Source: a bacterium
Lineage (GTDB): Bacteria; UBA8248
DNA: 64,000 nt
Reading direction: 5' to 3'
Assembly: GCA_965203325.1 (NCBI GenBank)
Contig: OZ241875.1
Span: 64,001 to 128,000 of the forward strand
Shown here: piece after piece, positions 7,510 through 63,838 of the stretch
Layout: the number at the start of each line of letters is the position of its first letter
How positions within the stretch are numbered: the stretch's first letter is position 1
Made by a program: the position numbers and the translations under genes
The notes under the pieces: generated by a model
Databases searched by the model: none
Told to the model about the DNA's origin: nothing
What the model saw: the letters and a program-made list of their open reading frames with translations, nothing else

Positions 7510-7661
7510 GACGTGAAATCGAGATTCTTATTTTGCTCTTTTTGGGGTACCTGTGCTTGATGGTAGGCTTTCGCATGGAAGACATTGGCATACAGGTTTT
7601 TTGCTATATTCTCTCGGCCATGTTTTTTTTCGCCATATTCCGACCCAAGCAGTCTCCCTGA
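7506..7661 (+). CDS. 51-aa two-TM small membrane protein (not in ORF track)
   Basis: ATGA overlap with previous ORF; MRREIEILILLFLGYLCLMVGFRMEDIGIQVFCYILSAMFFFAIFRPKQSP. Confidence 0.6.
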   Translation: MRREIEILILLFLGYLCLMVGFRMEDIGIQVFCYILSAMFFFAIFRPKQSP

Positions 7662-7674
7662 CGGGGGGCATTCT

Positions 7675-7751
7675 GGCGGCGTAGCTCAACCGGTTAGAGC
7701 ATACGGCTCATATCCGTAGTGTTGGGGGTTCAAGTCCCTCCGCCGCTACCA
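7675..7751 (+). tRNA. tRNA with CAT anticodon, most likely elongator tRNA-Met
   Basis: 77-nt cloverleaf GGCGGCG...CGCCGCTACCA, anticodon arm TACGG-CTCATAT-CCGTA; not initiator-like. Confidence 0.93.
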
Positions 7752-7779
7752 TTCCTCGCCACCAGGGGAGGAACTCCCG

Positions 7780-9267
7780 ATGACCTCGGACACCTCGCAA
7801 ACAAATCCACTTAAAATAAAAAAACGATTTGAAGCCAAGGTGAGAAAAGGCCTCCAGAAATCGGCTTATGCGGCCGAGTCTGCCCCTTTGATGGTCGGTT
7901 TTTCCGGTGGCGCAGATTCCACGGCTCTTTTGTTGTCCTTGAAGTCGATCCTGCCGGAATCACAACTCCTGTGTGCCGTTCATATCGAACATGGACTCCG
8001 TGGCGGTCTTTCAAAAAAAGATGCGGAGCATGCTGAGCAGGTGTGCTTGCGACACGATATCGATTTTCGTTGTGAGCACGTTCATGTGTCTCGAACAGCG
8101 CAACTGGGTCTTGAAGGAGCTGCCCGCGAATCAAGGCGCTCGGCCTTCCTGGCGATTGGGAGGGAGATAGGCTCCGATACCATTGCGTTGGCCCACAACA
8201 GGGATGATCAAGCCGAAACCGTGCTCATGCGTTTGTTTGAAGGGGCAGGCGTCAGGGGGATGGGAGGCATAAAGTGGAGGACCCCGCTTTCGTCGAAAGG
8301 AGAAGATGCGTTCCACATCATCCGGCCTTTACTGGATTTGTCGCGTGAAGAGATTTTGGAGTACTTGGAGATACTGGGCATCTCCTGGGTCGAGGATGAA
8401 ACGAACCTGGACGAGAGTCGCCTCAGAAATCGGATACGCAAAAAAATTATGCCGATGGTTCGGGAGCACTTGGGGGATGCGGCCATTAGCGGAATCGCCA
8501 AGAGTGCGGAGATATCGGCCCCGCTTGTTTTCCTGATGGATGAGATGTCCAAGGAATTGACGGTGAAATTCATCCATAAAGACAACGGGAAACTCGTTGT
8601 TTCTCCTTTAGGGGCAGTGAAGGAACTCGCTCAATCGCTTAGAGCGGAGGTTTGGCGTGCGGCACTTGCAATGCTCAGAGGCGAATCGCCCGCCCAAACC
8701 GGCAGACGCGCTCTCCGGGAATGGATTGAAGGCCTGGACCGCCTGGCAATGGGAGATAAACCCTCGGGTGTGTTGAGTTTGCCGGGCGACCTGGAAGCGA
8801 GAAAGGAATATGACCGCCTTATCTTCGGGAGTTCCCTTGTTGATTCGAAGTTGCTTGAGGAGAAAAAACTGCGGGTTCCAGGAAAGACGGTTCATCATTC
8901 ACTAGGCCTTGCGATAGAAGCGTCATGTCATTTTACACATCGTTCAAACGGCGCATGGGAGGTGTGTCTCGACCTGGAAAAGCTGGGGGCGGATGCCTGT
9001 ATCCGAACCCGGCGTGATGGAGATCGGTTCCATCCATTGGGACGAACAAAAGCGAAGAAACTCAAGGATTACCTCATAAAGCGGAAAATACCGAAATCCG
9101 TAAGGAATCGAATACCTCTCCTGGCCGTAGGAGATAAGGTGGCATGGATCATAGGTCATCAGGTTTCAGCGGAATTCGTGCTTGATGGGAATGAGAAGAG
9201 GGGGGTTACCCTTAAAGCGTTGCTGGAGAATAAAGACAGTAAGCTCTTAAGTTCTTTGGGTTATTGA
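7780..9267 (+). CDS. tilS: tRNA(Ile)-lysidine synthase
   Basis: SGGADS, HGLR, AHNRDDQAETVLMRL, IRPLL, RNRIR, C-terminal KKLKD..KIP. Confidence 0.95.
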   Translation: MTSDTSQTNPLKIKKRFEAKVRKGLQKSAYAAESAPLMVGFSGGADSTALLLSLKSILPESQLLCAVHIEHGLRGGLSKKDAEHAEQVCLRHDIDFRCEHVHVSRTAQLGLEGAARESRRSAFLAIGREIGSDTIALAHNRDDQAETVLMRLFEGAGVRGMGGIKWRTPLSSKGEDAFHIIRPLLDLSREEILEYLEILGISWVEDETNLDESRLRNRIRKKIMPMVREHLGDAAISGIAKSAEISAPLVFLMDEMSKELTVKFIHKDNGKLVVSPLGAVKELAQSLRAEVWRAALAMLRGESPAQTGRRALREWIEGLDRLAMGDKPSGVLSLPGDLEARKEYDRLIFGSSLVDSKLLEEKKLRVPGKTVHHSLGLAIEASCHFTHRSNGAWEVCLDLEKLGADACIRTRRDGDRFHPLGRTKAKKLKDYLIKRKIPKSVRNRIPLLAVGDKVAWIIGHQVSAEFVLDGNEKRGVTLKALLENKDSKLLSSLGY

Positions 9268-54923: not shown

Positions 54924-56324
54924 ATGAGCGACTGGACGATTACGTCGCTGCGTGACGCCTACCGCGCCGGTGAAGTTTCTCCCGTCGAAGTCGTCGACGA
55001 CGCCCTCGCCCTCATCAAAAAATGGAACCTCAAGCTTCGGGCCTATCTGCACGTCAGCGAAAGGGAGATGCGCCGGGCGGCACGGGAATCCGAGCGAAGG
55101 TTCCGCTTCGGCGATGAACTCGGGCCCCTCGACGGGATTCCCGTGGCCTACAAGGACCTCTGCCATATCCCGGAAACGCCCACGACTTGCGGAAGCGTGA
55201 TGTTCGAAGACGATCCGCCCGCCGATGCGGTATCGAGCGTCTGGAAGCGCCTCGACGAAGCCGGAACCGTCAACATGGGGAAACTCAACATGGCGGAACT
55301 CGCCATGGGGCCGACGGGACGCAACAAACATTTCGGCGACCCGCAGAATCCCTGGAAACAGGGTTACGTTACGGGCGGTTCGAGCAGCGGGTCGGGATGC
55401 GCGGTGGCCGCAGGAGTGTCGCTGGCCGCAATCGGCACGGACACGGGCGGCTCCATCCGGCTGCCGGCGGCGTTTTGCGGCGTGGTGGGCATGAAGCCCA
55501 CGAACGGCCGCGTGAGCAGACACGGGGGGATGCCGCTCTCGTGGACGCTCGACACCTTCGGCCCGCTCACGCGAACGGTGGCGGACAACGCGCTGGTGCT
55601 CACAGCCATTGCGGGTGCGGACCCCTTGGACGCGAGCGCGAGCACGCGGCCCGTTCCCGATTACACCCAGGTGCTCGGCGAGAGCATATCGGGCGCTCGC
55701 GTGGGCGTTTTGGAAGGCGCGGCGTTGGGCGGCGTTTCCGAGGAGGTGCGGACGGCTTATGAGGATGTGTGCAATGCGCTCGAACGCCTGGGTGCTTCTC
55801 TCGTCCCGATGCCACCTCCCCGGGCGGAAGAGCTCGAAGAACTCGCCAACACGATCTTCAAGTACGAGGCGCTGATGATACACGGCGAGCGTCTGGAGAA
55901 ATACGCGGATAAGGTGACGCTGGAAATTTTAGCGCGCCTGGAAGCCGGGCGCGGGGTTCATTCTGCCGAATACCGCGCCGCGCTCGCGAGGCGAGAGGAG
56001 TTGATCCGCCATTACGCACGCGAGGTGTTCTCCGCCGTGGACGTTCTGGCCGGCCCGACGACGCCCGTGCCCGCGCCCTCGCACGCGCAGGCGCGCACCG
56101 AAGCCGAGGGGCTGATCGCCTCCCTCACGCGCTTCACGCGCTGGGTCAACACCCTCGGCGCGCCCGCCATATCCCTGCCCTGGGGGTTTTCGGGAGACGG
56201 ACTGCCGCTCGCAGTCCAGTTCGTCGGTCCTCACTTCAGCGAAGGCACGCTCTACAGAATCGCCCACGCCCTGGAGGGGGAAAGCGGGGGGTGGTCGAGG
56301 TCTCCTGATTTCAAGTCTTTTTGA
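54924..56324 (+). CDS. Amidase-signature family amidase
   Basis: GPLDGIPVAYKD, GGSSSGS, GTDTGGSIRLPA. Confidence 0.93.
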   Translation: MSDWTITSLRDAYRAGEVSPVEVVDDALALIKKWNLKLRAYLHVSEREMRRAARESERRFRFGDELGPLDGIPVAYKDLCHIPETPTTCGSVMFEDDPPADAVSSVWKRLDEAGTVNMGKLNMAELAMGPTGRNKHFGDPQNPWKQGYVTGGSSSGSGCAVAAGVSLAAIGTDTGGSIRLPAAFCGVVGMKPTNGRVSRHGGMPLSWTLDTFGPLTRTVADNALVLTAIAGADPLDASASTRPVPDYTQVLGESISGARVGVLEGAALGGVSEEVRTAYEDVCNALERLGASLVPMPPPRAEELEELANTIFKYEALMIHGERLEKYADKVTLEILARLEAGRGVHSAEYRAALARREELIRHYAREVFSAVDVLAGPTTPVPAPSHAQARTEAEGLIASLTRFTRWVNTLGAPAISLPWGFSGDGLPLAVQFVGPHFSEGTLYRIAHALEGESGGWSRSPDFKSF

Positions 56325-56536
56325 TCTGGCTTGAGCGCATCGCTAGATGCGTCATGGCGGGGCGCAAGGACCGGTTGGATTCGTACACCGCCGGTTTGCT
56401 CGCGCCCCGGGAGTGGGCGCGCTCTCCTCGTCCTACCCAGCCGCGCATCGACCTCACCCCAAGTAGTGTTCCCCTTCCCTCACCCTGAGTAGCGGCCCCT
56501 CGACTTCACTCGGGACAGGGCTCCGCCCTCCACTTT

Positions 56537-56695
56537 CCTCATCCTGAGTAGCCGCCGAAGGCGGCGTATCGAAGGATGCCTCTCGCACGCCGGAGAGATG
56601 CGCCTTTTGACCCTCCCTCCTCGGTCGGATCAAACCTTCGATACAAACGCTCCTTCATCAGTCGCGCTTGACCTACGCGCCTACTCAGGATGAGG
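56537..56695. mobile_element. MITE-like hairpin element with 15-bp perfect TIRs
   Basis: CCTCATCCTGAGTAG...CTACTCAGGATGAGG; inner GTATCGAAGG/CCTTCGATAC; partial copy at ~56478. Confidence 0.8.
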
Positions 56696-57274
56696 GTGTC
56701 AGGACTTCTGCGAAGCCTGCTGCCGTAACCGGGTTTTTCAACAGCCCCGCACATGCGTCCCTTTGCTTTTGATCGTCATTCCGGCAAACACTCCTGATTG
56801 CGGGAAGGATCAACAACCCCGCGAGGGGCTTTTCAACCCGAAAAGCGAGAGTTTCAGGGCGCATTTGCCCGTATTTGCGGGACGCGCACAGGAGGGGATT
56901 TCGGTATGATGGCGAAGCCGCTCGCTTCGTCCGGGAATATGGAATTTCCGAAAAATTCGATAAAATCAGATAAATTCACGGTGTTTTTCGATAAATTGCT
57001 GAAAATTTTCGAGGGGAAATGCGGGGCGCTGCGGGGAAATGCGGGGGTGAAAATCTCCCGCCCGCAGAAACACCGTGAGGATAACACGGTCCGGCGGGCG
57101 CGTGCGCAACGGCAAATGCGGGGAATTGCGCCGCGGAACTTATGTGGGCTTTATCTAATTCGGATTCCAGGAATCATGCTCTAAATAATTGATATGAAAG
57201 GCTTACATGTATATTCGGAGGGGAATGCGTTTGCTAGAGATGTCAGGTCCAGACGCCCGGCGAGAAAATGAATC

Positions 57275-59137
57275 CTATGAGGTCCCCTCTTCGGTTTGCT
57301 TCTCTTTCTCCCAATCTTTCAGTGACTTGGGCAGCTTGTCCTCATTCCATTTCCTTGTGATTCGGTAGACCTTCCCGCCTTCCCTCAGGTAGAAGAACTC
57401 AGAGCCCGCCTTCTCCGCGAAGCGATACGGGCCCCACGCGCCGTGGCGTACGTCCTTTCCCGAGAGCTCGACGATAAAGTCTTTGAAATCAGGTGCTTCG
57501 CCGGGTTTCGCCTCTCCTTCCCTCTCGAAATCCCTGAGTGCGCCGATGAGGTCTTCCACGTTGCCCGACTCCGCTTCCATCCCCTCGGGGGAGACGAAGC
57601 GCCAGGCTTCGCCGAAGCGCTCGAGTTTCATGGAGGTATTGTTCGGAAAACGCGCCGTAACTTCTGTAATTTCAGTATCTTTCGCGTACCTGAGCAAGCG
57701 CCGCTCGCTCAGGAAATAGGGCGTCTTCGTAATCTTGTCATAATCTTCTTTCTTGAGGGCGAATATGCGTTTTTCTCCCCGGATTCGGCCGTACGCTCTT
57801 TTCTCCCCCTCGAGGAAGCGCCCGATAATCAAGGACTTATCCTCAAGCGGCCCGTCTTCTTTCTTCTTCAGCCAGAGGGTGTAGCGAAGCGGCGCTCCCT
57901 CCCCGTCCGCTCGCGCCAAGCCGTATTTCGACAAGTCGTCTCCGGGGTCATCCACGTAGTCAATCGAATTGATCCACTTGATGTCCCACATGAGGTCATC
58001 CACGTGCTTGTGGCGGCCGATGAGATTTTCCTCCTTCCCATCCGCACCTCTGACGTGGAGGTCCCACTTCTTTTTCGCCTTTCGGAGGATGTCTAGTTTT
58101 TGAGCGTCCGATTCAATCAAGATGCGCTTGACGTGGTCGACGTCATAATCGATGACGGTTTTGTGCCGTAAGGAAAATACGGATTTCGGCAAGTCCTTGA
58201 CCGTTTTTTCATTGATGAGCATTACGGGGCCGCCGGAGAGCCTCCTGGCGTAATAATACGCTTTTGGTTTTTTTTGGCCGCTCTTCGGCCCGGGCGCCTC
58301 TACTTTTCTGTCGCCCAGGATGACGCCGTCTGCGGGTTTTTGCTTGTCTTCGGTGAAAATACGCACAGTGAGTCCTGGTTTATCCAGACCGTAAGGAGCG
58401 AGATTCTTCGGCTTTTCCTCAACGAATCTTTGCACCTTGTCCCATCTGAGAGTAGATACGATGCCCTCCGAATCAATGGCGTCGGCCCTGTCCTCGATGG
58501 GCTTGACCAGCGCCCACTTGTCTTTGCTCTTGCGGACGACGGTGAAACCGCTGCCGCCTTGAGGCTCGACAATCACCTTTTGCGCGCTTTCGGGCATCAC
58601 GGGAACGATCGATCTATCCCGAATGCTGAATACCGTTTTATCGAATTCGGCGATGTCGGAAAGCTGGAGGGTAAAGATTTCCGGGACCTTCGCCAGAGCG
58701 GCATACCGGAACTCGCGCGTGGGGGTTCTGTCCCCAATCTCGACGGAAATATCGTCCTTGTCTTTCAGCCCAAACGTAATTTTCATCCTGGGCTTGTCCA
58801 TTCCAAACTCCGCTCTGTCTTTTACGTCTCCGATGCGCCGACGTTCGCGGAGTTTCGTCGCCGCTTCCAGGAGTTTTTCGAGCGCATCGGAATCGACGGC
58901 AGCGTCAACGGGTTTAACGAAACGCCACCCTTTCTCCGTCCGGATAATCTGGTATGGTTCTTCTTCTCTCGTTACGTCGATTCTTATCAGCGCCTTCTCG
59001 TCAATTCCTTTCAGGAGCTTGACCTTGCGCTCCTCGGCCTCGCGCTCCTCGGCCGCCCATTTCACGTCGTAGACGTAGTACGCGCCACCCAGGACCACCA
59101 AAACCAATAGTAATATGAGATTTTTCTTGGGGTTCAC
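57275..59137 (-). CDS. Multi-DUF4340-like periplasmic membrane-anchored protein
   Basis: N-terminal TM, repeated W..VKP..AD / (F/Y)GLDKP / IG motifs; last gene of Gld-type ABC operon. Confidence 0.8.
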   Translation of the reverse strand: MNPKKNLILLLVLVVLGGAYYVYDVKWAAEEREAEERKVKLLKGIDEKALIRIDVTREEEPYQIIRTEKGWRFVKPVDAAVDSDALEKLLEAATKLRERRRIGDVKDRAEFGMDKPRMKITFGLKDKDDISVEIGDRTPTREFRYAALAKVPEIFTLQLSDIAEFDKTVFSIRDRSIVPVMPESAQKVIVEPQGGSGFTVVRKSKDKWALVKPIEDRADAIDSEGIVSTLRWDKVQRFVEEKPKNLAPYGLDKPGLTVRIFTEDKQKPADGVILGDRKVEAPGPKSGQKKPKAYYYARRLSGGPVMLINEKTVKDLPKSVFSLRHKTVIDYDVDHVKRILIESDAQKLDILRKAKKKWDLHVRGADGKEENLIGRHKHVDDLMWDIKWINSIDYVDDPGDDLSKYGLARADGEGAPLRYTLWLKKKEDGPLEDKSLIIGRFLEGEKRAYGRIRGEKRIFALKKEDYDKITKTPYFLSERRLLRYAKDTEITEVTARFPNNTSMKLERFGEAWRFVSPEGMEAESGNVEDLIGALRDFEREGEAKPGEAPDFKDFIVELSGKDVRHGAWGPYRFAEKAGSEFFYLREGGKVYRITRKWNEDKLPKSLKDWEKEKQTEEGTS

Positions 59138-60822
59138 CGCAGTTGCCTTCTCCTGACGTAGACGGCGGCTCCGATGAGGATGATGAACAACGGCATGACC
59201 CAGACGGTGAACAAGTGAACGAACCGCCCTTCCCCGCCGGCCAATACGAGAGGTTCGCCCGTACGGCTTTTGGGACGAATGCTGATCAGGTCTTTCTCGC
59301 CGCCGAGCCAGTTCACGGTGTTGAGCACGAGATTTACATTGCCCTGGGTGCCGATGAAAGCATCACTCGCAAAATCGGCATCCCCGAACACGACAATCCG
59401 GGCTTCGTTCTTATCGTTGGTTTTCTTATTGGAGACAGGTGTTTTCGAATCATCGGGAGAGCCCTGCCCCTGCGCAAGCTTGTAAAGATCGAGCGTGACG
59501 GTGACGGCGGCTCCTACCGGCACAGGGCCATCTTTCCTGGTTTTCGGATCGAAGTGAAGTTGCCCGTTTTGGATGCCGACGCTCTCGACAGTAAAGCTCC
59601 CGGCGCCCGTTTTGACCAACTCTTCGGAATGAAGCCCCGCCTTGGGCATACCCTTGGCGGAGACCTTTCTCACCGTTGGAAATACAGTAGCGAAACCCTT
59701 CAATTGCCTGGTGATTTCGTGCAGTCCGTAGTTAACGGCGAACGGCGTGATGATATTTCCACCCGCCAATTCAAAGCGAACGGATTCAGGGTCGACGACG
59801 AAAGATTGGGGAATTTCGAACCCGTATCTCTCCAGGAGCGCAGTCAGACGCCCCGGCTGCATATCGGGCTCCAGTAAAACGAGGAGTCTTCCGCCGGATT
59901 TGATGTAATCGTCGATATACTTGATCTCGGTTTCTTCCAACTCTTTTTTGGGGGCCGCGATAATCAACATGCTGGCGTTATCGGGCACGCCCTTTTTTCT
60001 GAGCAGCAGGAGTTCCTCCACCTGGTAGTTGTCATCCCGCATGCCGATGGCCAGCGCCCTCATCGCCTCGCGCCCCTGCCCTGTGAACAGGCGTTCTCCA
60101 TGGCCTGTGAGGTAATATACGCGTTTTTGCTCGGATTGGATCGTTTTCAGTATCGCATTGGCGATCGCGTTTTCTGAAAGGTCGAATATCTTCTCCGATC
60201 GGAAGGTCGGTTTCTTCTCCTGTCCAGCGGAATTCGATTTGTTCTGTTTCTCGGCTTCTTCTTTGTTGAAATGGTGAACCACGACCAATGTGCCATAGGC
60301 GTCTACTTCATACTTCTTGGCGGTTCGCGGGGAGGCGTCCAGGTCCAGAAACCGGAAAGAGACTTGTTGCGATGTCCGGGTATATTGCTCCAAAATTTCC
60401 GTTATCGCAGGTTCTTCAAGTTTGCGGGTGAAGGCGATGATTTCGATCCGCCTTTTTTCTCTATCGAGTTTGTTCAACAGGTTCATGGTTTTCGCGGACA
60501 AGCTGTAGAAATTTCCAGGCGTGACGTCCCAACGCTTGAAGTGTTTTACGCTCACCAGTTCAACGACAACCAAAATAGCTGTCACCACAACGACCATGAG
60601 CGCGACCTGTATGCCCGTTCTGGTCGAGCGGAGCCGAATGCCGCCTTGGAGCTCGCGGCGTGAAATCCACACCGTATACGCGAAACAAACGATTCCCAGG
60701 GCGATGGTAGCGTACGCCCATCGGGGAGGATCGGAAAACTGGTCATGCCCGGCCCAGCCGGATATGCCAATCAGCAATAAGGCGGCTGAGGCGATGAACA
60801 AGTAAAGATTTCTGTTTTCCAT
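59134..60822 (-). CDS. GldG-like ABC transporter auxiliary component
   Basis: RWDVT....YSLS..T, YYLTGHGE, GGRLLVLL, RIVVFGDADF, N.VNWL, C-terminal TM. Confidence 0.88.
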   Translation of the reverse strand: MENRNLYLFIASAALLLIGISGWAGHDQFSDPPRWAYATIALGIVCFAYTVWISRRELQGGIRLRSTRTGIQVALMVVVVTAILVVVELVSVKHFKRWDVTPGNFYSLSAKTMNLLNKLDREKRRIEIIAFTRKLEEPAITEILEQYTRTSQQVSFRFLDLDASPRTAKKYEVDAYGTLVVVHHFNKEEAEKQNKSNSAGQEKKPTFRSEKIFDLSENAIANAILKTIQSEQKRVYYLTGHGERLFTGQGREAMRALAIGMRDDNYQVEELLLLRKKGVPDNASMLIIAAPKKELEETEIKYIDDYIKSGGRLLVLLEPDMQPGRLTALLERYGFEIPQSFVVDPESVRFELAGGNIITPFAVNYGLHEITRQLKGFATVFPTVRKVSAKGMPKAGLHSEELVKTGAGSFTVESVGIQNGQLHFDPKTRKDGPVPVGAAVTVTLDLYKLAQGQGSPDDSKTPVSNKKTNDKNEARIVVFGDADFASDAFIGTQGNVNLVLNTVNWLGGEKDLISIRPKSRTGEPLVLAGGEGRFVHLFTVWVMPLFIILIGAAVYVRRRQLR

Positions 60823-60826
60823 GTTC

Positions 60827-61603
60827 CTAGCCTCTCCACCTGTAGTATTCAAGCGATCTGAGCACGAGGAAACCACATAGGAGGTTGATGTTGACGAGAT
60901 AAATAATGTCGCGCGTGTCAATGATGCCCCGAATGAAATTTCGCAAGTGCATGCCCAACGAAAGATGCCTGAGAATCGAAGACAAGGGCTCGCTGGCCGC
61001 TATCGCGAGAGCTTCCACCAGGAAAGTTGCGAGAAGTATCATGAAGGCAATCATGGCCGCGACGATCTGGTTCGAAGTCCATGAACTGGCCAAAAGGCCA
61101 ACCGAAAGGAACGCCATGCCCGTCAATACCGTCCCCAGATAGGCCGAGGACACGATGGTCCAATCCACCTTGACGAAAGCACTCAGAATAATCGGATATA
61201 CAAGAGTAATCGCCAGCATTATCAAATAAATGAACAAAACGGAGAGGTATTTCCCGGCGAACAATTGTCCGTTACGCAGCGGGAGGGTGAGCATCAACTC
61301 CAAGGTGCCCTGCTTTTTCTCTTCACTGAAAAGGCGCATTGAAAGCAACGGAGCGACGAACAAGAGAATCACGGTGACGCTGGAAAAAACCGGTTCCAGA
61401 ACAGCTGAAGTCGGCGTGATGTTGTACTGTGCGGCCGCCTGGGGGTTTCTGGCCAATTGCATTGAAACGGTGGCATAGGACAGAAAAGCGCCGGAATAAA
61501 AGAAACCCATCAACACCGTCCATGCAGCGAGAATCACATAAGCGATAGGCGAGAAGAAAAACGAGGCGAGTTCGCGTCGGCATATAAAAAAGGTGTTATG
61601 CAT
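60827..61603 (-). CDS. GldF-like ABC-2 permease
   Basis: RELASFFFSPIAYV, MRLFSEEKKQGTLEL, TSNQIVA, RGIIDTRD. Confidence 0.9.
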   Translation of the reverse strand: MHNTFFICRRELASFFFSPIAYVILAAWTVLMGFFYSGAFLSYATVSMQLARNPQAAAQYNITPTSAVLEPVFSSVTVILLFVAPLLSMRLFSEEKKQGTLELMLTLPLRNGQLFAGKYLSVLFIYLIMLAITLVYPIILSAFVKVDWTIVSSAYLGTVLTGMAFLSVGLLASSWTSNQIVAAMIAFMILLATFLVEALAIAASEPLSSILRHLSLGMHLRNFIRGIIDTRDIIYLVNINLLCGFLVLRSLEYYRWRG

Positions 61604-62561
61604 TTACAGTTTCCTCATCGTGCTCCTGCTCCCCGCTCACGATACGAACAAAAAGGTCTTCCAGCGTCAGTCTCATCTGACGGATTTCCGTGAGCTTTCC
61701 CTCCGCCGCGTATACGGCGGCTACCAGGTCGGAGCGAATGTCATCACCGCTTTTTGCGTGCACTTCGAAATGCAATTCTTCCCCTGTGGACGTGCCGAGT
61801 CGTTCTACGCGCGAAACTCCTGGTACAGTTTTCAGTTTATCGGATAGCGTACCGGCGACCCCGGTTGCCGAAAGACGTATAGTGGAGTCCGCTTGCAAGT
61901 TCGCCGCCAAGGCGTCGAGTGCTCCCTCGGCTGCCACTCTGCCCTGATGAATAATCACAACGCGGTCACACACCATATTCACCTCAGGAAGAATATGCGT
62001 GCTCAGAATGAGGGTTCGGTTGCCTTTGAGTTCCGAAATTAAATTCCGGATCTCCACAATCTGAGCCGGGTCAAGGCCTGACGTGGGCTCGTCAAGAATC
62101 AACACCGGCGGATCGCTCACCATTGCCTGCGCCAAACCGACACGTTGACGATATCCTTTGGAGAGATTGCCGATGAGACGGTGGGCGACATCCTCGAGTC
62201 CGCAACTCCCGACCACCCTTTGAATGCCGGCGTCTTTTTCCGCGCCGCTCATTCCTTTCATAGAGGCCACAAAATTCAAATAAGCTCTTACCGTCATCTC
62301 TCTGTACAACGGGTTGTTTTCCGGGAGGTATCCGAGGTTTTTCTGGGCTTCCAGCGGTGATTCCGAGACATTGATGTCCGCCACCCAGGCGGAGCCGGAG
62401 TTTGGCGGCATATACCCCGTCAGAATGCGCATAGTCGTGGATTTTCCGGCGCCATTGGGCCCAAGAAACCCAAGCACCTCACCTTCTTCGACCCGGAAGG
62501 ATATATCTTCCACACCACGCAGGTTGCCGTAATACTTCGTGAGGTTTTCAACCCGTATCAA
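61596..62561 (-). CDS. GldA-like ABC ATP-binding protein
   Basis: GPNGAGKSTT, YLPENNPLY, LSKGYRQRVGLAQA, DEPTSGLDP; TTG start after GGGGAG. Confidence 0.93.
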   Translation of the reverse strand: MIRVENLTKYYGNLRGVEDISFRVEEGEVLGFLGPNGAGKSTTMRILTGYMPPNSGSAWVADINVSESPLEAQKNLGYLPENNPLYREMTVRAYLNFVASMKGMSGAEKDAGIQRVVGSCGLEDVAHRLIGNLSKGYRQRVGLAQAMVSDPPVLILDEPTSGLDPAQIVEIRNLISELKGNRTLILSTHILPEVNMVCDRVVIIHQGRVAAEGALDALAANLQADSTIRLSATGVAGTLSDKLKTVPGVSRVERLGTSTGEELHFEVHAKSGDDIRSDLVAAVYAAEGKLTEIRQMRLTLEDLFVRIVSGEQEHDEETVNA

Positions 62562-62720
62562 CGAAGAACTCCCCAAAAGAATCTATGCAAAATTATTCGC
62601 CGGCATCCAAGCCGCCCTGCTCTTCTTTATCAATCTGAGCGATTCATTTGTGTGATTAAAACATCCCGAAAACTTCTGAGGTGAACAGGAAAACCAATTA
62701 AATTCTTTATTATCAATACA

Positions 62721-62747
62721 TTGGCACTCGATTGCCTTGAGTGCTAA
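62721..62747 (-). promoter_or_regulatory. CIRCE element (HrcA operator)
   Basis: TTGGCACTC-GATTGCCTT-GAGTGCTAA, 17/18 match to TTAGCACTC-N9-GAGTGCTAA. Confidence 0.92.
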
Positions 62748-62750
62748 GAT

Positions 62751-62779
62751 AAAATAATCGCTTGGACTCTTTTTGTCAA
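62751..62779 (-). promoter_or_regulatory. Sigma70 promoter of the Gld-type ABC operon
   Basis: Minus strand TTGACA-17 bp-TATTTT ending 3 bp before CIRCE. Confidence 0.8.
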
Positions 62780-62833
62780 CCATATTCGAATATATTTCTG
62801 CCTCTCGCACGAATTACGGGGATGTCATCCTCG

Positions 62834-63838
62834 TCATTTCCCCATTTGCAAATCGCCTCGGATAGCGGCTTTCTTCAAAATGGCGGGAACATTCAGTATC
62901 CACGGCCCATCGAGTCGAAGCGATATCTCTATCTCTTCTCCTTTATTGAGCAAGTATTCCCGCTCCCCGTCAAAAGCCAACACGCGAGTATCCGGTGCTC
63001 GGTATTTTACAGTTTCTCCTGGTTTGACGACCTCGTGTTCCATCACCGGGGCGGCAGCAATCTGCCCGGGTCCAATCGGCGAAATGACGTGGTGGTTGGA
63101 TTTGCTCTTCGCCCCCAACTTCAACCACAGCCCCACGGCTTCGTCTGCATCTATCGGACGCAAACTCGCACCTAATGAAGAAAGTCCCAAACGCCCAGGC
63201 TCACTTCTCGTCAGCGCCAGCGAATCCACACGCCCTACATCCCAGATTGCACGCGCCCCATAGAACGATTCCTTGATAATGGCGATATCTATCAAGGCAC
63301 TTTCGAAATCGCCATCAAGGTTTACATGGAGCTGTTTCGACACCTTTTTCTCGCTTCTATAAACTCTTGGATAAAGGGCATATAAAGCCGCCGCCATACC
63401 GGCCACAGTCCCTTCCCAGGAAAAGGGGAAGGCATTGTTCGTTCCAGTCGACAAGGGGATCAAGGGAATTTCGTTACATCCTTTGGAGACAGCACGGCAG
63501 GTACCATCGCCTCCGAGAACAACGATGCACCGAACGCCCAGTTCATCGAGTTTGTGAGCCGCTTTGGTGGAGTCGGCCGTCTCTCCCCTGGCGTCCACTT
63601 CAAAGAGTTTTACGTTGGAGTTCTTGTTCTCATGACGAAAGCCATCCACTGCGACTGCGCCCAAGGAACCGAGATCGTTGAACATCAGGATATTATCCAG
63701 GCCCATCGCGGAAATACCCGCCATTACGCGGCGAAGCATCAATACCTTTTCGTTGTTGCTGAAAGAACTTGCCAACGCCACCAACCTGCGGATGTCTTTG
63801 CCTGATTGCGGGTTGGCTATGATTCCGACACTCGCCAC
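62834..63838 (-). CDS. AcoX-like NAD-kinase-family protein
   Basis: VGIIANPQSGKDIRRLVA, LGGDGT.R, STGTNNAFP, AFDGERE. Confidence 0.85.
   Translation of the reverse strand: MASVGIIANPQSGKDIRRLVALASSFSNNEKVLMLRRVMAGISAMGLDNILMFNDLGSLGAVAVDGFRHENKNSNVKLFEVDARGETADSTKAAHKLDELGVRCIVVLGGDGTCRAVSKGCNEIPLIPLSTGTNNAFPFSWEGTVAGMAAALYALYPRVYRSEKKVSKQLHVNLDGDFESALIDIAIIKESFYGARAIWDVGRVDSLALTRSEPGRLGLSSLGASLRPIDADEAVGLWLKLGAKSKSNHHVISPIGPGQIAAAPVMEHEVVKPGETVKYRAPDTRVLAFDGEREYLLNKGEEIEISLRLDGPWILNVPAILKKAAIRGDLQMGK

Follow-up and report, generated by a model that had tools for sequence, protein, structure and literature searches.

HrcA is a GroE-dependent repressor that acts at the CIRCE operator (controlling inverted repeat of chaperone expression) and leaves it when unfolded proteins occupy GroE. 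ATP-binding cassette (ABC) motors of the LolCDE and MacB type use cytoplasmic ATP hydrolysis to drive work on periplasmic clients. The present analysis concerns a four-gene operon, gldA-gldF-gldG-DUF4340, which lies together with a CIRCE-bearing promoter at positions 57275-62779 on the minus strand of a window of 64,000 nucleotides (the whole stretch of DNA analysed, from contig OZ241875.1). In Deltaproteobacteria, the listed targets of HrcA and CIRCE comprise groESL, hrcA-grpE-dnaK-dnaJ and rpoH (PMC545781). The ATPase activity of GldA is needed to keep the lipoproteins GldJ and GldK stable in F. johnsoniae (PMC9127263), and a gldG mutant of this system loses GldJ, with the molecular function being called unknown (PMC5682007). 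DUF4340 was predicted as a subunit of a similar complex in SAR11 (PMC13712998).

The locus resembles known HrcA/CIRCE regulons in its 9-9-9 operator, its sigma70-type promoter, the presence of an hrcA gene and the occurrence of groESL and hrcA sites in the same genome. It departs from the usual regulon in its putative target, an operon that encodes a membrane ABC system rather than a chaperone and has an operator to itself, and a CIRCE operon in a sister family, again unlike the usual regulon, also includes degP and a DAC-domain gene. As in Flavobacterium, an ATPase, a six-helix permease and a GIFT-domain auxiliary protein are encoded in that order, and the ATPase signature LSKGYRQR is identical in both (PMC9127263), whereas the four-repeat DUF4340 gene in fourth position and the CIRCE distinguish the operon from the Flavobacterium gliding system. 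The same coupled four-gene module is seen in operons with PF09822 and PF14238; relative to the operon of this kind in PMC13712998, a regulator and a chaperone neighbourhood were identified here, neither being given, and no function or link to stress either, in the available portion of that paper. The working principle may be like that of LolCDE and MacB, but the permease belongs to the ABC-2 family, and searches with the putative periplasmic parts gave no sequence or fold match. Both parts are of kinds already known, and the union of HrcA/CIRCE with a Gld-type ABC operon was new to the literature searched: the open literature yielded no paper in which genes of a Gld-type ABC system are tied to HrcA, to CIRCE or to operons of chaperones, with most subscription papers and curated regulon databases lying outside the scope of the search. 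Judged from its sequence, the gld operon is likely to be a new HrcA target.

The first-pass annotation of the window had described a promoter TTGACA-17-TATTTT, followed after 3 bp by a CIRCE matching at 17 of 18 positions, and every base was found as claimed. The sigma70-type -35 hexamer TTGACA (62774-62779, minus strand) and the -10 hexamer TATTTT (62751-62756, minus strand), 17 nt past it, form the best sigma70-like site in the region 56300-63000 (10/12 positions, by consensus only), although a site of this kind is by itself no rarity (mean of 4.3 in shuffles). The predicted HrcA site (62721-62747) begins 3 nt past the -10 hexamer and is a 9-9-9 inverted repeat, which reads TTAGCACTC-aaggcaatc-GAGTGCCAA on the minus strand and carries 1 mismatch (17/18) to the consensus used, TTAGCACTC-N9-GAGTGCTAA. 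It was the sole CIRCE match in the window at ≤3 mismatches; shuffled windows contained a mean of 0.01 matches, and 1/100 shuffles reached 1. The predicted transcription start (~62744) would lie inside the left CIRCE arm, in agreement with the annotated placement of the operator over +1, and because the operator covers this position, the gld operon is expected to be induced together with groESL.

The hrcA gene, whose presence had been left to be confirmed, was found intact (PF01628, E 1.6e-65, no stops), and hrcA was present in every genome of the class that was searched. At ≤3 mismatches, the genome (4.39 Mb) contained three CIRCEs, located at gld (1 mismatch), groES-groEL (2) and hrcA (2), with the gld site being the closest to consensus. 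Three further sites with 4 mismatches had no recognisable heat-shock gene behind them.

Within the genus, a CIRCE (≤3 mismatches) was located directly upstream of gldA, by coordinates, in 19/23 genomes. Among 24 aligned genus rows, which are kin and not independent, mean column identity was 0.89 and 0.98 for the two arms, against 0.57 for the spacer and 0.69-0.79 for the flanking sequence; TTGACA was identical in 24/24 rows (the rows being anchored on it) and also found in other genera aligned, and TATTTT reached a mean column identity of 0.95. In genome G006 (locus L043), the two arms of the gld operator had changed symmetrically, so that the inverted repeat was perfect, and the spacer measured 10 nt; this genome holds one CIRCE only at ≤3 mismatches. 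For the other genera of the family, 19 genomes were considered, 16 of which had upstream sequence: CIRCE occurred in identical geometry in 3/16 (G033, G034 and G040, from two genera, at ~60% GldG identity), and G039, from a third genus, carried a copy with 4 mismatches immediately upstream of its -35 hexamer. Both hrcA and at least one CIRCE were present in all 23 genomes checked for the two. Since the site is kept in some lineages and lost in several that retain hrcA, HrcA control appears to have been selected in some lineages and to be dispensable in others.

A second line of evidence came from the rest of the class. Five genomes from three genera of a sister family (f4) carried the arrangement CIRCE-degP-ORF-dacZ-groEL-gldA-F-G-DUF4340 on one strand (ORF, open reading frame), and these operons also possess a -35/-10 pair. 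Another f4 genome (G022) had the identical gene order and no CIRCE, and gldG was not found in a further one (G021). In G019, groEL immediately preceded gldA, the promoter lying beyond the contig end, and G020 (L038, ~7600-7830, minus strand) contained a 75-codon groEL-like ORF right before gldA, a remnant that seems to retain the start and end of groEL alone (C-terminal part E 0.001). Counted by family, groEL preceded gldA in three families of the class besides that of the present operon. In a tree of GldA and GldF, a single clade uniting the operon of this family with the groEL-linked operons was not rejected (p-AU, approximately unbiased test, 0.79). The simplest history we infer starts with an ancestral operon of the form CIRCE...groEL-gld; the gld genes of this family would later have split off, keeping or regaining an operator. 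The assignment of the operon to an HrcA-type stress regulon was thus borne out by the presence of hrcA, by the sites in 19/23 genus genomes and by the CIRCE-degP-groEL-gld operon of the sister family, and the gld operon is very probably HrcA-regulated. The placement of dacZ under CIRCE in f4 is a possible link between cyclic di-AMP and heat shock; DacZ-type genes with a diadenylate-cyclase (DAC) domain (PF02457 and PF21755) accompanied degP/groEL or dnaK/dnaJ/htpX at L032-L037, L228:4497-5363 and G000:C1:1920719-1923387. A gene for a DsbA-like thioredoxin was located directly upstream of gldA in G028 (L041:7458-8156).

The annotated tight coupling of the four genes was confirmed, with all of them on one strand, Pfam domains in agreement, an 8-bp overlap between ATPase and permease genes, a 4-bp gap between permease gene and gldG and a 4-bp overlap between gldG and the DUF4340 gene; the next long ORF past the latter is a convergent amidase gene. 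The GldA-like ABC ATPase (61596-62561, minus strand; PF00005; TIGR03522 320 bits, cut-off 402.6) has an intact Walker A motif (GPNGAGKS), signature (LSKGYRQR), Walker B motif (LILDEP) and H-loop. Its most likely start codon is TTG 62561, which stands behind GGGAG; the protein then has 321 aa and the leader ~183 nt. The GldF-like ABC-2 permease (258 aa; 60827-61603, minus strand; PF12679; TIGR03518 131 bits, cut-off 288.5) has 6 hydrophobic segments according to hydropathy, so that the features of an ABC-2 type transporter, intact ATPase motifs and a six-helix ABC-2 permease, are predicted to be present. The GldG-like auxiliary protein (59134-60822, minus strand; PF09822, PF23355 and PF23357; TIGR03521 71.5, cut-off 389.85) starts at ATG 60822 and comprises 562 aa, with 3 N-terminal hydrophobic helices, DUF7088, a GIFT/ABC_transp_aux domain and a C-terminal hydrophobic helix. 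Its AlphaFold2 (AF2) model had a pLDDT (predicted local distance difference test) of 83.9, and a sequence search of the PDB returned weak matches to IFT52 (E 0.024) and thioredoxin and nothing stronger. The DUF4340 protein (620 aa; 57275-59137, minus strand; PF14238) has an N-terminal membrane anchor and no cysteines. Pfam scores it as three stretches, and hhalign resolved four tandem alpha/beta repeats of ~140 aa (probability 99.5-99.9 between repeats), in keeping with the multi-DUF4340 protein of the first-pass annotation. Its AF2 model had a pLDDT of 92.3; the PDB sequence search with the DUF4340 profile gave 0 matches, and the Atlas search returned only DUF4340 or unnamed clusters. The best fold match of the whole 620-aa model was a clostridial lipoprotein of unknown function (Z 6.6, root-mean-square deviation 3.9, 103 residues aligned), with none at Z ≥8, and folds of the LolA/beta-groove carrier type were absent among the 50 matches listed. 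No paralogues of the gldF, gldG and DUF4340 genes were found elsewhere in the genome. Many DUF4340 proteins (among P0069-P0213) were 1200-1700 aa long and contained as many as 9 matched stretches; the repeat number thus varies widely.

The four products probably form one complex. When GldG was paired with DUF4340 residues 1-340, the predicted binding lent weak support to this: the score was 0.44, against 0.00 for the best control, runs agreed to at least 73% and the partner pLDDT was 78 or more, in a calibration where passes at scores ≤0.60 comprised 18/157 solved pairs as well as both mismatched pairs that passed. Some close relatives (P0242, P0243 and P0245) encode a fused GldF-GldG protein of 844 aa, an arrangement consistent with one complex.

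Outside the class, PF09822 matched 136/202 genomes by subtraction (184/251 diverse genomes in total). For 80 of these genomes, drawn from the 150 matches listed, the neighbourhood of one match was inspected over ~16 kb; 112 further matches fell outside these, so the 80 loci are biased to high scores. Genes for dnaK, dnaJ, grpE or groEL were present on the same strand in 7/80 loci, compared with ~0.9 expected from random windows of the genome holding the present operon, scaled to 3.3 Mb (P ~3e-5; 0.002 ignoring strand). The arrangements were gld-dnaK (L224), dnaK-dnaJ-htpX-clp-gld-degP (L225), gld-hrcA-grpE-dnaJ (L227), clpB-dnaK-dnaJ-dacZ-htpX-rpoZ-gld (L228), gld-grpE-dnaJ (L242), a looser DUF4340...dnaJ-degP...gldAFG (L244) and dnaK-htpX-groES-groEL-gld (L245), with Tectomicrobia, Nitrospinota, Nitrospirota and Ca. 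Alcyoniella among the source names of chaperone-linked loci. An unbiased ranking of non-gld neighbours in the 80 loci, made by best match in the genome of the present operon and hence blind to genes without a relative there, was led by dnaJ (5), dnaK (4) and MoxR (4), followed by rho, a response regulator and htpX (3 each); 115 genes occurred once. Same-strand dnaJ was also found in 8/76 metagenome loci, many of them on short contigs, and L117 showed the order degP-dnaJ-gldAFG-DUF4340-dnaK-htpX-DUF1844-degP. A tree of 114 rows, from which L182 and L200 (no gldA) were excluded, separated two subfamilies: chaperone-linked loci made up 7/26 in the subfamily holding this operon (subfamily II) and 0/52 in the other, which had clp and degP-like matches on the opposite strand and two ftsH-like matches and no more. 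In 4 more of the 26 subfamily genomes, gld was located inside moxR-DUF58-Bat clusters.

In the reading we favour, HrcA bound to the CIRCE over the sigma70-type promoter would repress the gld operon along with groESL and hrcA, and protein-folding stress would release HrcA and induce it. The four products would assemble into one inner-membrane ABC complex, with GldA and GldF as its ATP-driven core, and the GIFT domain of GldG and the four DUF4340 repeats would face the periplasm and touch client proteins; according to hydropathy and AF2 models, both GldG and the DUF4340 protein combine membrane anchoring with large soluble domains. The core would work together with proteases of the DegP/HtpX type and be the motor that acts on its clients, periplasmic proteins or lipoproteins, instead of pumping small solutes, and ATP would be spent to fold, hand over or clear envelope proteins. 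Folding or clearance of envelope proteins under stress appears likely because of the CIRCE found here and because relatives often reside inside chaperone/protease clusters, and a job on envelope proteins is most likely in view of the reported GldJ/GldK stability phenotype and the periplasmic and membrane protease neighbours. The handling of misfolded envelope proteins, which the annotation had proposed, would have its basis in the gene neighbourhood and the Flavobacterium mutant phenotype. That gldAFG-DUF4340 is a machine for envelope protein quality control is given an even chance.

Several results weigh against these proposals. The expected conservation of CIRCE upstream of orthologues held within the genus, was patchy in the rest of the family and was confined to this class: the site was absent in 12/16 other-genus genomes of the family, all 12 of which retain hrcA and other CIRCEs, and no CIRCE was found near gld in the 80 outside genome loci or in the 76 metagenome loci. 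It was altered or eroded in 4/23 genus genomes, with 4 mismatches in G008 and eroded copies in G009 and G015. When the seven chaperone-linked loci and those of G022 and G020 were extended, no CIRCE was found at ≤4 mismatches, and a genome-wide search in the subfamily-II genomes (n=26) found none near gld, with 18/26 having CIRCEs elsewhere. The main dnaK cluster of the genome itself, clpB-dnaK-dnaJ-htpX-grpE-dnaJ, had no CIRCE. A core chaperone neighbour was lacking in 73/80 outside loci; of the 8 metagenome loci with linked dnaJ, 7 seem to have a single rpoZ-ORF-dnaJ block in common (on one short contig, rpoZ was unseen), which may be one inherited arrangement; and the contrast between subfamilies (Fisher p = 2.5e-4) is descriptive only, because the split was noticed after labelling. 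The fold search with the whole 620-aa DUF4340 model returned no chaperone fold.

The main rival to protein quality control accepts HrcA control as real and has the machine move envelope lipids or glycolipids, heat induction keeping the membrane intact. It would suit a permease of the ABC-2 exporter type and the essentiality of DUF4340 in Verrucomicrobium (PMC12283558), as well as scattered lipid-gene neighbours: a gene for a CDP-alcohol phosphatidyltransferase comes after the operon in L041 and also in L228, one with a Kdo-transferase domain before it in L230 and one for GT2 after it in L246 and L250. Behind the present operon, however, there is no AsmA-like gene, the next long ORF being the convergent amidase gene, and the neighbours that recurred in at least 3/80 loci included no lipid gene, in a ranking limited to genes with a relative in the genome of this operon. 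Lipid transport is considered a possible explanation, clearly less probable than envelope protein quality control. The linkage to chaperones could alternatively be a matter of hitch-hiking, the operon having once stood behind groEL, with CIRCE a decaying relic and the chaperone neighbours an inherited order without function. The groEL genes before gldA in three other families, the remnant in G020, the single clade for the whole class that was not rejected, and the missing and altered sites described above are all compatible with such a history. It is at odds with arms that are conserved while the 9-nt spacer is scrambled, with a site that persists in other genera, where the proteins are ~60% identical and the branch leading there measures 0.48 changes per column, with a gld CIRCE nearer to consensus than the groESL and hrcA sites and with partner chaperones that vary by lineage (groEL, dnaK, grpE-dnaJ, hrcA, clp, MoxR) and are placed either upstream of gld or downstream; hitch-hiking is therefore held to be unlikely.

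A role as an accessory of gliding motility or type IX secretion, as in Flavobacterium, is suggested by GldA, GldF and GldG being the top NCBIfam matches and by the identical ATPase signature. All three proteins nonetheless scored under the equivalog cut-offs of Bacteroidota gliding, in line with the first-pass annotation, which had not regarded the transporter as gliding-type; a GldJ match reached 33 bits against a cut-off of 458, and the GldM and GldL models gave 0 matches, yet no control genome matched either. The GldG family extends over 184/251 diverse genomes, well beyond Bacteroidota gliding, whose taxonomic range is far narrower, and a gliding function is very improbable. Less credible still is that the inverted repeat arose by chance or serves another gene. 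A reversed-pattern control did give 0-2 matches per genome at 3 mismatches, but the mean per shuffled window stands against chance and the position is identical in 19 genomes, and conservation in the genus largely refutes it. There is no divergent gene at the operator to be served, because the upstream NAD-kinase-like ORF (PF01513; 62834-63892, minus strand), which ends at 62834, lies on the gld strand.

This upstream ORF, which we take to resemble acoX of acetoin operons, preceded the gld promoter in 16/16 other-genus loci of the family with upstream sequence, whether or not CIRCE was kept. A motif YAA-N4-TTGATW, assumed here to represent an IHF-like consensus, overlaps the downstream CIRCE arm (62711-62723, minus strand); in a slightly relaxed form it was present in 15/24 genus rows, and the genome contains 99 occurrences of its strict form. 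The predicted 5' leader (62562-62744, minus strand) folded no better than shuffles (z = -0.01) and had no unusual structure. The dnaK cluster without CIRCE (clpB-dnaK-dnaJ-MerR-like-htpX-grpE-dnaJ, G000:C1:3518782-3528678, plus strand) also had no HAIR (HspR-associated inverted repeat) at ≤1 mismatch; a genome scan for HAIR found one 1-mismatch site elsewhere and none at the gld promoter. Since the MerR gene inside the cluster is presumably HspR-like, the cluster may be under a second regulator of heat shock that uses a different operator. gldAFG-DUF4340 was within or adjoining moxR-DUF58-vWA (Bat) clusters at L216, L229, L238, L239, L104 and L171. DUF1844 genes recurred at the ends of chaperone-gld clusters (L224:13829-14401 and L117:13461-13949, both confirmed by Pfam, and L225:274-588), and in one metagenome group the gld operon followed c-type cytochrome genes (L099, L100, L122, L124, L126, L135 and L137). 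A Synechococcus stress gene reported as DUF4340 (A2528) was rejected as support, being a 552-bp gene between aroQ and hisH (PMC12789804), and the Synechococcus GldG gene was not differentially expressed in one comparison row in the available supplement of a stress study. A GldG gene that appears in a table of PMC12053348 was likewise not counted as support.

The GldAFG-type ABC module is very widespread (184/251 genomes), and its loss destabilises envelope lipoproteins in Flavobacterium, according to the papers cited above. The dedicated heat-shock operator, the position as the last part of a CIRCE-degP-groEL operon in the sister family and the repeated residence in dnaK/dnaJ/htpX/MoxR clusters give this family a concrete and testable job, and together constitute a strong comparative lead to the role of a very common uncharacterised ABC machine. 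More tentatively, and with the balance tilting against it, GldAFG-DUF4340 in general, present in about two thirds of the diverse genomes sampled, might be an unrecognised machine that uses ATP for proteostasis in the envelope. Facing the periplasm as a counterpart to DnaK and GroEL, it would provide the energy with which proteins are folded or triaged outside the cytoplasm, and its role in Flavobacterium gliding would reflect no more than the maturation of GldJ and GldK. The HrcA regulon, which usually contains chaperones only, would gain a membrane machine, and, if true, this would bear on how the energy of ATP reaches protein folding in the ATP-free periplasm.

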